Of a stretch of DNA of 64,000 nt, positions 8,733 to 36,990 are shown piece by piece. Both the position numbers and the translations under genes were made by a program. A model generated the notes under the pieces. That model saw only the letters and a list, made by a program, of their open reading frames with translations. It did not search any database and had not been told where the DNA came from. Source of the DNA: Escherichia coli (GTDB taxonomy: Bacteria; Pseudomonadota; Gammaproteobacteria; Enterobacterales; Enterobacteriaceae); assembly GCF_022846255.1 (NCBI RefSeq), contig NZ_AP025682.1, one strand, 5' to 3'. Position 1 is the stretch's first letter. Every line of letters begins with the position of its first letter.

Positions 8733-10084
8733 GTCCCATTCTCCTGTAAAGCGCGTACTACCTCTTCCATGGCAGCACTACGTGAACCCTTAACTAAAAT
8801 CGTAATTACCTGTTGCTCAGCAATCAGTGATTTAAGACGTGTGATAAGCGCAGTTTTATCGGCAAAATGTTCGCCAATGCCGCTGGCGGTACTGATAGCA
8901 TGGCTTTGTTTACCCACACTTAACACACGGTCAATACCCGCCGCCTTCGCCGCTTCGCCCACCTGTACATGGCAGGCCTCGCTTTCAGCGCCCAGTTCCG
9001 CCATATCGCCCACCACCAGCACACGGTAGCCCGGCATTTCAGCCAGTACCTGAACAGCGGCGGTCATGGAGCCGACGTTAGCGTTGTAGGAGTCGTCGAG
9101 CAGCAACTGATTTTCCGCCAGTTGAATGGGGAACAGACGGCCAGGAACAGCTTTCAGATTTGCCAGCCCCGCTTTAATAGCATCAAGCGTTGCGCCCACG
9201 GACATGGAGAGCGCAGCGGCTGCCAGCGCATTCGCAATATTGTGACGCCCCGGCAACGGCAGCAGAACATCGACGCTACCCGTTGGGGTTTGCAGCGTAA
9301 ATTCCGTACCGTGCGAGGTCACGTGGATATTGGTGGCGGTGAAATCGCTGTTGTTAGCATTCGGTGAGAAGCGCCACACTTTGCGTGAGCCAATCACACT
9401 CTGCCAGTTCAGCCAGTCGTTGTTGTCGGCATTCATAATGGCGATACCGTTTTCCGGCAGACCGGTAAAGATTTCGCCTTTCGCTTTCGCGACCCCCGCA
9501 AGCGAGCCAAAACCTTCCAGATGCGCCGCCGCCAGATTGTTGACCAGCGCCGCTTCCGGGCGAGTCAGACTCACAGTCCAGGCAATTTCACCCTGATGGT
9601 TTGCACCAAGCTCAATAACTGCGTAATCGTACTCTGGCGTTAAGCGCAACAGCGTCATCGGTACACCGATGTCGTTGTTGAGATTGCCTGCCGTATAAAG
9701 CGTGTTGCCACACTGGCTTAAAATCGCTGCCGTCATCTCTTTAACGGAGGTTTTGCCGGAGGAACCGGTCAGAGCAACCACGCGCGCCGGAACTTGCTGG
9801 CGAACCCATGCAGCCAGTTCACCAAACGCCAGACGAGTATCCTTGACGATTACCTGCGGCAGATCGATATCCAGCGGACGGCTGACCAGTAGTGCGCCCG
9901 CGCCGCCAGCTTTCGCCTGGTCGGCAAAATCATGAGCATCGAAACGTTCGCCTTTCAGGGCAACAAACAGGCAGCCCGGCGTCAGTTTTCGCGTGTCAGT
10001 GGTTACAGCATCAAGGGTGATATCTGCACCTTGCAGTTCACCGTTGAGAATATCGGTAAGTTGGCTAAGGGTTACGCTAATCAT
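8726..10084 (-). CDS. murF: UDP-MurNAc-tripeptide--D-alanyl-D-alanine ligase
   Basis: Track ORF, 452 aa; Mur ligase P-loop GSSGKTS. Confidence 0.96.
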
Positions 10085-11568
10085 GCAATCACCCCCAGCA
10101 GACGCGCCACCGTGACGCGATCGGAGTAGTCCAGACGCTGATTGCCAACAATCTGGTAATCCTCATGACCTTTGCCCGCGACCAGTACCACATCATTCTC
10201 TTTAGCCTGCATAACGGCGCAAGTCACCGCTTCAGCACGGCCTTCCATCACTTTGGCATGTCCGGCATCTAACATTCCCGCCAGAATATCGTTGATGATG
10301 GCACGCGGTTCTTCGGTACGCGGGTTATCGTCCGTTACCACCGCCACGTCAGCGAACTCTTCAGCAATTGCGCCCATCAGTGGACGTTTGCCTTTATCAC
10401 GATCGCCACCACAGCCAAAGACGCACCACAGCTTGCCCGCACAGTGCAGGCGCGCCGCCTGTAAGGCTTTTTCCAGTGCATCCGGCGTATGCGCGTAATC
10501 CACCACTACCGTCGGTTTGCCTGGCGCAGTGAACACTTCCATACGTCCACAAACCGGCTGCAGGCGTGCGGCAGTTTTCAGCAGGTCAGCCAACGGATAG
10601 CCCAGCGCCAGCAGCGTCGCCAGCGCCAGCAGCAAGTTGCTGACGTTAAAAGCGCCCATCAGATGGCTTTCAATTTCGCCATCGCCCCAGCTTGAGCTAA
10701 AGCGAATCGTCGCACCGCTGTCGTGATAGTTCACTTCTGTCGCTTTCAACCAGCGTCCGTGACAGTTCGGATTGATATGATCTTCCATTGATACCGCAAC
10801 CGCGTCCGGCAGTTTTGCCAGCCAGCGGCGGCCCACTTCATCGTCGGCGTTAATAATCGCCTGACCGCAATGATGCTCAGAATAAAGCAGCCATTTCGCG
10901 GCTTCGTAGTGTTCCATATCACCATGATAATCAAGGTGATCGCGGCTTAAGTTGGTAAAGACCGACGCCGCAAATTTCAATGCCGCCACACGGTGCTGTA
11001 CCAGTCCGTGGGAGGAAACTTCCATTGCGCAAAAAGTCGCGCCCTGATCCACCAGCCCCGCCAGCTCATGCTGAACATCGACTGCCGAACCGGTGGTATT
11101 TTCTGTCGGGATCACTTTCCCCAGCAGGCCGTTACCAACGGTGCCCATTACCGCGCTGGTTTCGCCAAGCAGTTGGCTCCACTGTGCCAGCAGCTGGGTC
11201 GTCGTGGTTTTGCCGTTGGTGCCCGTTACGCCTACAAGACGTAAATTGTCAGAGGGTTCATGGTAAAAGCGGCCCGCCAGTGCAGATAAACGCTCGTTGA
11301 GCTGGCTGAGATAGATGACCGGTACGCCGTGCATTTCACGGATTTCACCGTCGGTCGCCTCATCTTTCGCCTCTGCAATAATGGCAGCCACACCTTGCGC
11401 TATCGCCTGCGGGATATATCGACGCCCGTCCGCCTGATGACCTACTACAGCTACAAAGAGATCGCCCGCCGCAGCCACACGGCTGTCGAGTGTCATCTCT
11501 CGCAGTGCTCGCGAAGGTGCGTCTGGCACCCACGGAGCAAGAAGGTCGCGCAAATTACGATCTGCCAC
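10081..11568 (-). CDS. murE: UDP-MurNAc-L-Ala-D-Glu--meso-diaminopimelate ligase
   Basis: Track ORF, 495 aa; GTNGKTTTT motif; 4-nt overlap with murF. Confidence 0.96.
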
Positions 11569-31288: not shown

Positions 31289-31385
<97 letters not shown>

Positions 31386-31394
31386 GGCTATCCC

Positions 31395-32159
31395 CTAAAC
31401 CCCAACCACTTTACGCAAAATATCGATATACACCGGCATCAACGGGTGGCGAATTAACACCACCAGCGCCACCACGCCGATGGCAGAAATCAACGGCGTC
31501 AGCCACAACAAACGACCGCGGGACAAATAATGACTCAAACGGTCAGTCGCTTTACCGCTGCGCCATAACCGCCAGCACAGCCAGCCTCCAACCCACAAAA
31601 ACACCGCTGTTGCCAGCAGCAACCATTTAAACTCACCGCTCTGCATCCCGGCAGGAATATCGATCGCCGCACCCGCCAGAATCCCCGGCAGGAAGTAAAA
31701 CGGTGGCCACAGCAAGCAGCCGATAATATTCGGCGTAATAAATTTTGCCACCGGGAGATCCAGCATTCCCGCCACCATTGGCACCAGCGGACGCGTCGGG
31801 CCGACAAAACGACCGACCAGAATGGTGAACATGCTGTGCTGATGCAGCGCATGTTCGGTTTTATCGAGTAATGCTTTGTTCTTCTTCAGAAATGACCAGC
31901 GATGCAACGGCTTTTTAAAACGCCAGCCCAGCCAGAAGGAGATCCAGTCGCCCAGCAGGCAGCCAATAATCCCCGCCAGCCAGGCGTACCAGAAACTTAA
32001 CTCACCGCTGCCAATCAGTGCTCCCAGCCCCGCCATCAGCACCGTACCGGGTAGAATCAAACCGACCAGCGCCAGCGACTCCAGAAAGGCCACCAATAAC
32101 ACCGCCATCAATGAATACACGGTAGATTGGGTAATAAAGTGTTCCAGCAATGCTTGCAT
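31395..32159 (-). CDS. yabI: DedA-family inner membrane protein YabI
   Basis: Track ORF, 254 aa, MQALLEHFITQSTVYSLMAVLLVAFLESL... Confidence 0.95.
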   Translation of the reverse strand: MQALLEHFITQSTVYSLMAVLLVAFLESLALVGLILPGTVLMAGLGALIGSGELSFWYAWLAGIIGCLLGDWISFWLGWRFKKPLHRWSFLKKNKALLDKTEHALHQHSMFTILVGRFVGPTRPLVPMVAGMLDLPVAKFITPNIIGCLLWPPFYFLPGILAGAAIDIPAGMQSGEFKWLLLATAVFLWVGGWLCWRLWRSGKATDRLSHYLSRGRLLWLTPLISAIGVVALVVLIRHPLMPVYIDILRKVVGV

Positions 32160-32244
32160 AATGTGCCTGTCAAATGGACGAAGCAGGGATTCTGCAAACC
32201 CTATGCTACTCCGTCAAGCCGTCAATTATCTGATTCGTTACCAA

Positions 32245-32292
32245 TTATGACAACTTGACGGCTACATCATTCACTTTTTCTTCACAACCGGC
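32245..32292 (-). pseudogene. Displaced araC 3' remnant (last 15 codons plus stop: AGCEEKVNDVAVKLS*)
   Basis: Minus strand reads GCCGGTTGTGAAGAAAAAGTGAATGATGTAGCCGTCAAGTTGTCATAA, the canonical AraC C-terminus, about 1.8 kb away from the intact araC body. Confidence 0.85.
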
Positions 32293-32313
32293 ACAAAAGA
32301 CACCCTCTGCCTA

Positions 32314-32736
32314 TCATTCGATAGTCTCAAAATATTCCACCTGCAGAGAATCACGGTGCTCAATGATGCAATAACGCTGGAAATTATTTGCATAATCACT
32401 TTTATCATGAAAAAACCATATACAATCGTTTTGTAGACTCGGTCCCATTCTTTTCAAAAAATCTATTAGCTTTGCTTTCTGAAGAAAAATGTTATCTATA
32501 TTTCGCCATGTAACAATCACTCTTGTTTGCATATCATCAACATTATAGTAATAGCTATACTCGGCTACGTTTGATATGTTTGGCAAATTTCGCAAACTCT
32601 CTGGCGTATAAAGGAAAAATGGGGAAAGTTCATGCTGTGTATAGTGATGTTCCTTTGACATCAATGAGATATAAGCATAGAAAAATATAAAGAATAAAAC
32701 TAAAAATGATAATAAAATATAAATATATTTTGACAT
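32314..32736 (-). CDS. Hypothetical membrane-anchored protein, 140 aa (insertion gene B; candidate partner/immunity protein)
   Basis: Track ORF; N-terminal about 21-residue hydrophobic segment YIYILLSFLVLFFIFFYAYISL; ATG 6 nt after the gene A stop (translational coupling); AT-rich codon usage. Confidence 0.7.
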   Translation of the reverse strand: MSKYIYILLSFLVLFFIFFYAYISLMSKEHHYTQHELSPFFLYTPESLRNLPNISNVAEYSYYYNVDDMQTRVIVTWRNIDNIFLQKAKLIDFLKRMGPSLQNDCIWFFHDKSDYANNFQRYCIIEHRDSLQVEYFETIE

Positions 32737-32742
32737 CTCTAC

Positions 32743-33591
32743 TCACGACCTGTGCGGATAATGAGGGTTTAAGAAAAGAAAAAGCGGTCTTTCAAAGGGA
32801 GATTCTGAAAACTTTATAGCTCCCGAACTTGATAATGAACTATACAACTCATGATTTATTCTGTTTTTATCTTTATAATAATTAGTAACAGGTCTATTAT
32901 TATATTGATTATATAACAATGTTGAAAAAGACTCATCTAATGGCTTTATATAATTTAACCATTCTGGAAGCTTCTTTTTTATTAGTTGATTTTTTTTAAA
33001 AGGAGGATGGGTTGTAAATAAGAATGGCGTAAACTCAGTATTTTTAAAATTCCCTGGCGCTCCATATGTATCCCATATTTGTAAGGCTTTTGTGTAAGAT
33101 AAAGGTTTTGCCAATAAAAGTGGATCGGGGCCTGTTCCAAATACACGATAAAAACCAATCAAGTCTGAGACTAAATCTTCTGCACTAAATCCGCTATCAG
33201 TATACCAGTTAAAAATAAATGAGTTTTGCCATGCTTCAAACCTCTTCGCAGTTCCATACATTAACGTTAAGGCAACTCTTGCTTTAAGAGTGGGTGAAAG
33301 ACATGAACGAACCATAACCTTCGTATAAACACCGGTATGAAATGTAAGATCTACTCCTAATATTTTTTTCCGAATTCCCATTTCCTGATGATAATCAACA
33401 GGAAAATACCAATCATGAAATTCATCGTAATATGTTGAAAAATGTTCTTGCTCCAATTTTCTTTTTAATATTCTGGCATCTTGTCCCTGAGCATGCCCCA
33501 AATCGATCCAACCTAACTCTTCGGTATAAACTAATCCATACTTTTTCGTTGTTGCAAATATTCCATCAGTAATATCGTTACGTTTTCTCAT
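32743..33591 (-). CDS. Hypothetical protein, 282 aa (insertion gene A), no family recognised
   Basis: Track ORF 32743..33594 (GTG) trimmed to adjacent ATG; strong Shine-Dalgarno GAGGGGAG 6 nt upstream; no signal peptide or TM segment; Asn/Tyr/Lys/Ser-rich C-terminal third. Confidence 0.7.
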   Translation of the reverse strand: MRKRNDITDGIFATTKKYGLVYTEELGWIDLGHAQGQDARILKRKLEQEHFSTYYDEFHDWYFPVDYHQEMGIRKKILGVDLTFHTGVYTKVMVRSCLSPTLKARVALTLMYGTAKRFEAWQNSFIFNWYTDSGFSAEDLVSDLIGFYRVFGTGPDPLLLAKPLSYTKALQIWDTYGAPGNFKNTEFTPFLFTTHPPFKKNQLIKKKLPEWLNYIKPLDESFSTLLYNQYNNRPVTNYYKDKNRINHELYSSLSSSGAIKFSESPFERPLFLFLNPHYPHRS

Positions 33592-34070
33592 CACAATCTC
33601 CCCTCAAAAAAAACGTATAGCAAATAATATCAATAAGGAAAAATATTATTTTTCAATATTTTTTTGTATACAATTCATTTTATGAATGAATTTACAAAGA
33701 TAGCTGCGCCTGATGCCGCTACACTTTTGCCAGACCATGTTCTCCTCTGAGGGAGTAACTGGCGTTTTTCATAGAATGCCGTACTTTTTTCAACAACTGC
33801 CACATCGAACGGCATTTATGGTGGCGTGAAGTGCCTGCCATAACCGCTCAATGTGGTGTTCCTACGATGAACAAACCGCTTGATATATTCTCCTGATGCA
33901 ACCGGACAATATGTTCATGATGGGTATCCCGATACATAAGCCTTCGTTTTATTTTTACAAAAAGAAATCGTTGTCGATATTTTATCAAGAAAAAAAATAA
34001 TTCAGGTAAAACGATTCAACTAAAAATAACTAAAATTAATCCCCCGTGAAATATATAAATAACGTCAGAT

Positions 34071-34104
34071 GAAGAAAGCAAGGGGGTTCCCCCCCTTCTT
34101 TCTT
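34071..34104. terminator. Near-palindromic G5/C7 hairpin immediately 3' of the truncated araC stop (candidate terminator, possibly bidirectional)
   Basis: GAAGAAAGCAAGGGGGTTCCCCCCCTTCTTTCTT read directly; followed by a T-rich tract on the plus strand. Confidence 0.45.
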
Positions 34105-34105
34105 A

Positions 34106-34951
34106 TTATTCACAACCTGCCCTAAACTCGCTCGGACTCGCCCCGGTGCATTTTTTAAATACTCGCGAGAAATAGAGTTGATCATCAAAACCGACATTGC
34201 GACCGACGGTGGCGATAGGCATCCGGGTGGTGCTCAAAAGCAGCTTCGCCTGACTGATGCGCTGGTCCTCGCGCCAGCTTAATACGCTAATCCCTAACTG
34301 CTGGCGGAACAAATGCGACAGACGCGACGGCGACAGGCAGACATGCTGTGCGACGCTGGCGATATCAAAATTACTGTCTGCCAGGTGATCGCTGATGTAC
34401 TGACAAGCCTCGCGTACCCGATTATCCATCGGTGGATGGAGCGACTCGTTAATCGCTTCCATGCGCCGCAGTAACAATTGCTCAAGCAGATTTATCGCCA
34501 GCAATTCCGAATAGCGCCCTTCCCCTTGTCCGGCATTAATGATTTGCCCAAACAGGTCGCTGAAATGCGGCTGGTGCGCTTCATCCGGGCGAAAGAAACC
34601 GGTATTGGCAAATATCGACGGCCAGTTAAGCCATTCATGCCAGTAGGCGCGCGGACGAAAGTAAACCCACTGGTGATACCATTCGTGAGCCTCCGGATGA
34701 CGACCGTAGTGATGAATCTCTCCAGGCGGGAACAGCAAAATATCACCCGGTCGGCAGACAAATTCTCGTCCCTGATTTTTCACCACCCCCTGGCCGCGTA
34801 TGGTGAGATTGAGAATATAACCTTTCATTCCCAGCGGTCGGTCGATAAAAAAATCGAGATAACCGTTGGCCTCAATCGGCGTTAAACCCGCCACCAGATG
34901 GGCGTTAAACGAGTATCCCGGCAGCAGGGGATCATTTTGCGCTTCAGCCAT
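34106..34951 (-). CDS. araC: Arabinose operon regulator AraC, C-terminally shortened (281 aa; ends ...EFRAGCE*)
   Basis: Track ORF 34106..35002 trimmed to [23 protein letters not shown]...; matches AraC throughout but stops 11 codons early at TAATAA where the AT-rich insertion begins. Confidence 0.92.

Positions 34952-36990
<2,039 letters not shown>

Follow-up and report, generated by a model that had tools for sequence, protein, structure and literature searches.

A probable composite islet without a recombinase between araC and yabI of Escherichia coli beside an AraC of the usual enterobacterial length

The stretch of Escherichia coli DNA considered here (64,000 nt, hereafter the window) carries an insert of 1.8 kb between yabI and araC, the gene of the regulator AraC. 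Both the sequence and the list of open reading frames (ORFs) give the gene order thiQ, yabI, a gap of 1.9 kb, araC and araB, and the insert is set off from its surroundings by its GC content (24-38%, against 52-60% in the flanks). From the yabI side it comprises two small genes, ORF140 and ORF283, which together with their upstream region form what we call the cassette, then the relic of an IS630-family insertion sequence (IS), and finally the relic of the left end of another islet, which reaches araC (Table 1); Rfam and tRNA scans found no RNA genes in it. The AraC encoded in the window has 281 residues, 11 fewer than the K-12 reference, and is complete through E281.

Table 1. Features of the yabI-araC interval of the window, with the evidence for each.
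Feature	Coordinates	Strand	Basis
yabI, DedA-family membrane protein, conserved left flank	31395-32159	-	ORF; named yabI in APEC O1; adjoins araC across Enterobacteriaceae
Native E. coli yabI-araC intergenic region	32160-32244		32160-32294 100% identical to insert-free E. coli H25
Stranded 3' end of a 292-residue-type araC: (C)GT GCC GGT TGT GAA, 11-codon read-through tail, TAA	32245-32294	-	Translation; homology to the empty locus stops at 32294
yabI-side repeat copy ttcacaaccggcac, equal to the local E. coli araC end	32281-32294		Repeat search; boundary as in Citrobacter freundii, C. farmeri and Salmonella
ORF140, small protein with hydrophobic N-terminal helix; putative immunity protein or partner	32314-32736	-	ORF; partner present in all genomes examined
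ORF283, DUF4056/CapCone-like; putative periplasm-acting toxin or type VI secretion system (T6SS)-type effector	32743-33594	-	Weak Pfam match, invariant motifs, Rahnella hcp paralogue
Putative upstream (promoter) region of the cassette itself	33595-33689	-	Motif atttg(t/c)t in common with Citrobacter, Salmonella and Trabulsiella cassettes, recognized by eye, no alignment
IS630-family (ISEc33-like) terminal relic	33690-33897	-	73-80% identity to plasmid IS630-family elements; RefSeq annotation in APEC O1
Left-end relic of the pfkB/DHDPS/tctCBA islet: 13 pfkB codons (33899-33937), upstream region, terminator-like hairpin (34080-34097)	33899-34105	-	Alignment with the ST131-type islet from 33900
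araC, 281 residues, GCE then TAA TAA; last 42 coding nt (34109-34150) unusually divergent	34106-34951	-	ORF, translation, difference test
araC-side repeat copy ttcacaacctgccc, 12/14 identical to the yabI-side copy; pfkB-islet-type araC allele	34109-34122		TTT AGG GCx as in ST131-type genomes, not TTC CGT GCC
Whole insert	32295-34105

An earlier note on this DNA, made from its letters alone, had proposed that an insert between araC and yabI leaves a native-type araC 3' end stranded on its far side, and the comparisons confirm it. The minus strand of 32245-32295 reads C-AGCEEKVNDVAVKLS*, which is the K-12-type AraC tail, and the intact gene ends, as the note had read it, in EFRAGCE followed by TAATAA. 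The remnant is real, although it measures 50 nt (32245-32294) and not the 48 given for it. It opens with GT, what is left of the native Arg277 codon CGT. The note's statement that AGG in the intact copy and TGT in the remnant are synonymous has to be corrected: TGT encodes Cys, and the codon to which AGG is synonymous is that broken CGT. When the window is aligned with an insert-free E. coli genome (L003), homology runs from the yabI side up to 32294 and resumes at 34102, some 21 nt of the empty site being matched at either junction. The identity of the yabI-side flank to genome H25 covers all its 135 nt, the remnant included.

The repetition of the last araC codons at both junctions was likewise borne out: the window contains two copies of TTCACAACCKGC and no more, starting at 32281 and 34109, while shuffled sequence gives a mean of 0.03 matches and never two or more (0 of 100 shuffles). 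In the window this repeat extends to 14 nt with two mismatches, and a repeat search returns the region as a 25-nt pair of 80% identity. Chance and artefact were considered as sources of repeat and insert, and both are ruled out by the expected 0.03 matches and by the presence of the insert in 486 complete genomes; the assembly artefact that the note had allowed for is thereby dismissed, the whole stretch of 2,041 nt spanning the gap being found at 80% coverage or more in each of them. The insert encodes no recombinase, as stated before, either in the ORF list or in searches of NCBIfam, PADLOC, PHROGs and Pfam.

The contents of the araC-yabI gap were surveyed by megablast of positions 32160-34200 against 5,426 complete E. 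coli genomes, and three states were defined: insert-free (state A), with the insert of the window (state B) and with a pfkB islet, as in genome H105 (state C). State B is found in 486 of the 5,426; identity is at least 98.7% in all copies seen and at least 99.8% in the three listed examples, which include APEC O1, and the RefSeq annotation of the locus shows an araC of 846 nt, a partial IS630 transposase and hypothetical proteins, two or three in number. A second group of genomes matches only the last 180 nt or so of the query, at 87% identity. In H105, the gap is occupied by an islet of 5.4 kb with genes for TctC/TctB/TctA, for a kinase of the PfkB family and for a DHDPS-family protein, next to an araC of 281 codons; this pfkB/DHDPS/tctCBA islet is carried by 582 of the complete genomes, among them EC958. 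The remaining genomes, about 4,300, match the flanks only and are presumed to be insert-free, their number being obtained by subtraction.

A fourth state is represented by one GTDB representative (L005, 9847-18229), in which a chaperone-usher fimbrial operon of about 7.5 kb has its own variant of the araC 3' end and is followed, beside yabI, by a relic of the tctA 3' end and a spacer of the pfkB-islet type; none of the 5,426 complete E. coli genomes has this state. Outside the genus, Klebsiella spallanzanii (L080:9847-15424) has the pfkB/DHDPS/tctCBA islet in the same gap, at 64-89% amino acid identity. The possibility that this islet is itself a repeat-flanked element was rejected, since in both E. 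coli and K. spallanzanii the islet stands in place of the entire intergenic region and no repeat accompanies it. Furthermore, several representatives of Enterobacter, Raoultella and Kosakonia (L043, L050, L053, L055; approximately 9846-10100) have a spacer between araC and yabI that exceeds the usual length by about 125 nt, and that of Yokenella contains an insert of 1.28 kb (L057:9846-11126); these are further signs of a hotspot at this place.

The araC-yabI gap is a long-standing hotspot with multiple states. It resembles the recombination hotspots that swap islets through flanking homology in that the gap may be empty or hold the cassette composite, the pfkB/tct islet or a fimbrial operon, at least four alternatives in all, and in the relics nested between islets (the pfkB 5' end in the window, the tctA 3' end in L005), and differs from them in that the cassette alone carries a repeat of the target-duplication kind. 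A literature search on araC together with yabI and on AraC length found no paper describing the araC-yabI locus. On present evidence the insert is not a new kind of system, rather a structural variant already contained in hundreds of RefSeq genomes under the label of hypothetical proteins; the gap with its nested islet relics is of use for annotation and as a source of lineage markers.

The araC-proximal part of the insert can be traced by aligning the window with both H105 and an insert-free genome, so that states B, C and A are compared three ways. Positions 33900-34105 are homologous to the left end of the pfkB islet; states B and C are 92.5% identical overall across 33900-35300, and 87% identical in the part that flanks the islet. 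The relic translates as MYRDTHHEHIVRL..., to be compared with MYRDTRREYIVRL... in the PfkB of the islet, and the homology ends at codon 13, where the end of the IS630-family element starts. The latter relic, of about 200 nt and annotated by RefSeq in APEC O1 as a partial, frameshifted IS630 transposase, is the only mobility-related sequence in the insert, and it lies at the internal boundary between cassette and pfkB relic, not at an outer end. Compared with state A, the last 42 nt of araC differ at 6 positions (14.3%) and the rest of the gene at 24 of 801 (3.0%; Fisher p = 0.003), and states B and C share TTT AGG GCx at the araC end, where state A has TTC CGT GCC. The shared triplet series and the homology of 33900-34105 assign the araC-side junction in the window to the pfkB-islet allele and not to the cassette, which would also be the reason why the repeat of the window is imperfect. 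As a separate observation, an imperfect direct repeat of 18 nt, GATAGCTGCGCCTGATGC (33699-33716) and GATATATTCTCCTGATGC (33882-33899), is found just inside the boundaries of the IS630 relic, its copies 183 nt apart; it may be due to chance or may be the scar of an IS-mediated rearrangement.

The cassette is not confined to E. coli. ORF283 has 268 relatives in Enterobacterales, and the ORF283/ORF140 pair is located between araC and yabI, on the araC strand, in Citrobacter freundii (L085-L088), Salmonella enterica (L089) and Citrobacter farmeri (L090), the ORF283 homologues in these gaps being 61-70% identical to that of the window at the amino acid level. Against insert-free relatives, the empty site matches both junctions over 16 nt in Citrobacter and 9 nt in Salmonella. 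C. freundii has a perfect repeat of 17 nt, CGCTGGATGTGAATAAA, and C. farmeri, a member of the group with a 292-residue AraC, a perfect one of 15 nt, CGCGCCGGTTGTGAA. As in the window, the C. farmeri copy next to araC runs into a stop codon (TGA), while the tail GAAAAAGTGAATGATGTGCCTGTGAAGATGTCATAA (GAAAAAGTG...) comes after the far copy; the Salmonella repeat is degraded, its far copy reading GCT-ATTGTGAA. All four lineages have their yabI-side boundary inside the Arg277 codon, at positions that agree to within 1-2 nt, and the junctions of both Citrobacter species fit an arrangement of gene body, core and element on one side and of element, core and native tail on the other. Read across the four lineages, the repeat genuinely marks the junctions of the cassette and is in all appearance the target duplication of its founding event.

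Other placements of the pair are known. In Trabulsiella odontotermitis (L091:5001-6279) and an Enterobacter sp. (L092:5001-6285) it sits between araD and polB, co-oriented with araD, so that it is kept beside the ara locus at two different positions; more distant pairs are found near ndh in Yersinia and after hcp in Rahnella. No flanking repeat was evident at the araD-polB sites or at the Yersinia site. The cassette ends of four genomes showed no convincing terminal inverted repeats; there was no recombinase in or beside the cassette in the Citrobacter and Salmonella genomes examined, and no close plasmid copies, the best match having 46% amino acid identity over 65% of the protein. Identity of the cassette proteins between genera is 61-79%, with E. 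coli as the outlier, and synonymous divergence (dS) is saturated in the cassette and in the flanking genes alike. Saturation made dS unfit as a test of vertical descent: it excludes recent intergeneric transfer and cannot separate ancient descent from ancient separate acquisitions. The apparently diverged E. coli protein clusters P0039, P0033, P0017 and P0036 were examined as candidates for a state with the cassette alone, and were discarded because all of them are state B with frameshifts. In APEC O1 (L001:2084-2931) the ORF283 homologue, intact in the window, is annotated as two coding sequences of 190 and 77 residues and is apparently frameshifted, and several protein clusters of a large database are frameshifted in a similar way.

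As regards AraC itself, the earlier note had concluded that its C-terminus is altered in this strain, and here our reading departs from it. The araC loci of 80 species representatives were collected and each reading frame was extended to its stop. AraC ends in ...RAGCE*, with no insert next to it, in the C. freundii complex, Salmonella, Klebsiella, Kluyvera, Raoultella, Kosakonia, Enterobacter, Pseudocitrobacter and others, that is, in most of the non-Escherichia Enterobacteriaceae loci examined; at these loci the stop is TAA, the sequence continues with AAA GTG AAT... and yabI follows about 120-130 nt downstream. The form of 292 residues is found in Escherichia (E. albertii, two further Escherichia sp. 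and insert-free E. coli) and in the C. amalonaticus/sedlakii group, whose loci read GAA AAA GTG AAT GAT ... and thus give EKVNDV...S*. The two forms are therefore one base apart, in the stop codon (TAA vs. GAA), and from the distribution of TAA and GAA over the species the 292-residue protein is best read as a derived, lineage-specific read-through form, the 281-residue ...GCE* end being ancestral and usual in enterobacteria. The note had named related AraC sequences ending in GCE without an insert as evidence against a shortened protein; such sequences were found in related genera, not in related strains.

The domain structure points the same way. Pfam HTH_18 ends at residue 278 of the 292-residue form, and the solved construct of the AraC DNA-binding domain (2K9S) comprises residues 175-281, so that the 11 extra residues lie beyond both; the AraC_binding domain and both helix-turn-helix motifs are complete in the protein of the window. 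The C-terminus is that of the AraC of Salmonella and Citrobacter, with the same length of 281 residues and an end that coincides with that of the 2K9S construct, whereas what follows differs: a native TAA and native intergenic sequence in those genera, TAATAA and a hairpin from the pfkB-islet flank in the window, where, unlike in Salmonella and Citrobacter, a fossil of the E. coli read-through tail is still to be found at a distance of 1.8 kb. About 20% of the complete E. coli genomes, APEC O1 and ST131-type strains included, have the 281-residue protein if the 486 genomes with this insert and the 582 with the pfkB islet, both of which encode it, are combined. Since the same length is the norm of the family at loci without an insert, we do not regard the AraC of the window as truncated in a functional sense, and it is probably intact as a regulator. 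The contrary view, in which the loss of 11 residues relative to the K-12 reference impairs the protein and alters arabinose regulation in this strain, would have to accommodate a form so common both within E. coli and outside Escherichia, and residues that fall outside both the helix-turn-helix domain and the solved construct; we hold it to be very improbable. The oddity is the tail of the K-12 and pBAD AraC. Two further points on araC were noticed. Contigs of about 6.5 kb in Photorhabdus namnaonensis (L006) and Xenorhabdus szentirmaii (L007) carry an E. coli-type araC of 292 codons, 100% identical over 281 residues, and are probably vector or E. coli contamination; and araC is seemingly frameshifted or disrupted in Kluyvera genomosp. 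3 and Citrobacter koseri NCTC10786 (L075, L078), through sequencing error or as a pseudogene.

Taken together, these data lead us to favour, with moderate confidence, the view that 32295-34105 is a composite islet without a recombinase, made of an old cassette at the araC end whose junction was later overwritten by the pfkB islet, next to an AraC that is not truncated. Its older part would be the ORF283-ORF140 cassette, which adjoins codon 281 of araC and has on its far side a second copy of the final 12-17 nt of the gene, with the native downstream sequence behind it. The founding insertion would be old, given that the alleles of the cassette have diverged to the same degree as the genes of the host, and the yabI-side copy may have been kept identical to the local araC end through recombination with insert-free alleles up to the edge of homology. 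In the lineage of the window, the araC-side junction would then have been overwritten by the left end of an ST131-type pfkB/DHDPS/tctCBA islet, an IS630-family element would have inserted at pfkB codon 13, and a deletion would have removed the rest of that islet; the order of these events, and the mediation of the deletion by the IS, are inferred. This course of events would explain the TAATAA stop and the hairpin that follows it, as well as the divergence of the final 40 nt or so of araC and the imperfection of the repeat. The remnant would be the read-through tail, no longer coding on the far side of the cassette. One old insertion is preferred to separate ones because of the missing recombinase and terminal inverted repeats, the lack of close plasmid copies and the lack of any sign of recent spread between genera.

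Several observations weigh against this account. The placement between araD and polB means that the cassette was moved or captured at least twice. No Escherichia genome with the cassette alone, free of the pfkB relic, was found, and for this reason the step in which the junction is overwritten rests on other genera. E. albertii and Salmonella also have AGR at Arg277, so that the divergence at the end of araC could go back to a linked allele of long standing and not to an import. A non-coding copy of 15-17 nt from an ancient event should decay, yet it is perfect in two Citrobacter lineages, and perfect repeats in lineage-specific codons are also what separate recent site-specific insertions would be expected to leave.

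A comparable arrangement is known. Some integrative elements enter the 3' end of a protein gene and supply a substitute end, as e14 and phage 21 do in icd. The window insert resembles them in its position at a gene 3' end, in keeping the frame, in the displaced native end beyond it and in the direct repeat at both junctions; it differs in having no integrase, two small cargo genes and a substitute end that is just a stop codon. Of the features of an integrase-mediated element with duplication of its attachment site (att), the insert has the direct repeats from the target but no tyrosine or serine recombinase ORF; of those of a transposon or insertion sequence with target-site duplication, the cassette has no transposase and its ends in the four genomes no terminal inverted repeats. 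The mismatches of the window do not fit an att crossover either. Non-native bases stand upstream of the core on the araC side (AGG GCA) and native ones upstream of the core on the yabI side, and a simple crossover into a K-12-type araC predicts the reverse placement. Of the note's proposal of a target duplication or recombination core, the idea of a junction signature gains support from the perfect Citrobacter repeats.

A site-specific origin, which is the note's reading with the recombinase placed elsewhere, could still be sought in a cassette that targets the last codons of araC through a core of 15-17 bp, depends on a recombinase acting in trans and supplies the stop codon that would keep araC intact. 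It would account well for nucleotide boundaries that are identical in four lineages, for perfect repeats (17 nt in C. freundii, 15 nt in C. farmeri) that consist of each lineage's own synonymous codons, and for the stop that directly follows the araC-side copy in the lineages with the 292-residue form (TAA in E. coli, TGA in C. farmeri). Less easily reconciled with it are the want of a recombinase in or beside the cassette in any genome examined, of terminal inverted repeats and of plasmid copies closer than the distant match mentioned above, the depth of the divergence between genera, which equals that of the host genes and speaks against recent spread, the araD-polB and Yersinia sites, where no repeat is evident, and the native bases on the yabI side. 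We consider such an origin unlikely, and quite unlikely the more specific claim that a cassette lacking a recombinase inserts, or inserted, after araC codon 281 separately in Escherichia, two Citrobacter lineages and Salmonella, mobilized in trans each time. A corollary would be that the 11-residue tail of K-12 may derive from loss of the cassette between the repeats, after the stop of the far copy had drifted from TAA to GAA. Only an actively site-specific cassette would change any major concept. The composite could, alternatively, have been built in another species and have entered an insert-free E. coli in one step of homology-facilitated illegitimate recombination, with a homologous crossover inside araC, an illegitimate join at the Arg277 codon and a duplication that arose independently in E. 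coli. The divergence of the last 42 nt of araC and of the pfkB relic from other E. coli alleles (9.5-14%), a yabI-side flank that is purely E. coli up to the breakpoint and the clonality of state B (identity of at least 98.7% in all copies seen) would agree with this. Its probability is low all the same: an independent illegitimate join would hardly be expected to hit, to within 1-2 nt, the breakpoint that Citrobacter and Salmonella have, and no donor with the composite was found among the 80 species representatives.

Returning to the old cassette of the favoured account, its cargo has left few traces in databases: NCBIfam, PADLOC and PHROGs gave nothing usable, Pfam only a weak match of ORF283 to DUF4056 (PF13265; E = 0.46), and a confident structural model matched no solved structure. 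Among 28 ORF283 relatives, DUF4056 is matched with E <=0.1 by 15 and with E <=0.001 by 2, the best value being 1.8e-6, and G27, H33 and D132-S-G-F-S-x-E-D139 are invariant in the 28 sequences. These residues match the motifs of the CapCone families, in which a Gly stands six residues before the active-site His and S/GxxSxx precedes a conserved Asp; the families belong to the Lipocone superfamily and have been predicted to comprise toxins acting on lipid head groups (bioRxiv 10.1101/2025.01.14.632903). A DUF4056 ORF in a bicistronic unit has also been proposed as a candidate T6SS effector in Salmonella pathogenicity island SPI-6 (PMC11669294).

The ratio of nonsynonymous to synonymous divergence (dN/dS) of ORF283 is about 0.1, which indicates purifying selection, and ORF140 is fast-evolving (dN 0.24-0.42); a partner ORF of 137-168 residues, with a hydrophobic helix at its N-terminus, follows the ORF283 homologue in every genome examined. 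In Rahnella (L098:10226-12090), a 47%-identical paralogue of ORF283 comes directly after hcp and is followed by an ORF of 168 residues, a second copy of the pair being present 3 kb away; by analogy, this is the classic Hcp-effector-immunity arrangement of a T6SS. Beside the window copy of ORF283 there is no secretion gene. ORF283 and ORF140 are thus plausibly a putative toxin-immunity pair. They share with orphan effector-immunity pairs of T6SS or polymorphic-toxin type, in the CapCone-DUF4056 branch, the bicistronic and AT-rich make-up, the location in a variable chromosomal spot, and the sequence of a protein of about 280 residues with G-x5-H and SxxSxxD followed by a small, fast-evolving, membrane-anchored one. 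The insert as a whole is best classed among composite islets of recombination hotspots, with an orphan putative toxin-immunity pair and a target-duplication scar, and it draws attention to an uncharacterized, conserved pair of this putative kind that lies beside the ara genes in several genera and is bounded by an unusually clean junction repeat of 15-17 bp.

Outside the insert, a sub-threshold Rfam match to naRNA4, a nucleoid-associated RNA of the REP type, was recorded at 31341-31401, where the few bases that separate thiQ from yabI meet the end of yabI, which the match overlaps; it scores 34.6 bits, the gathering score being 59.5.

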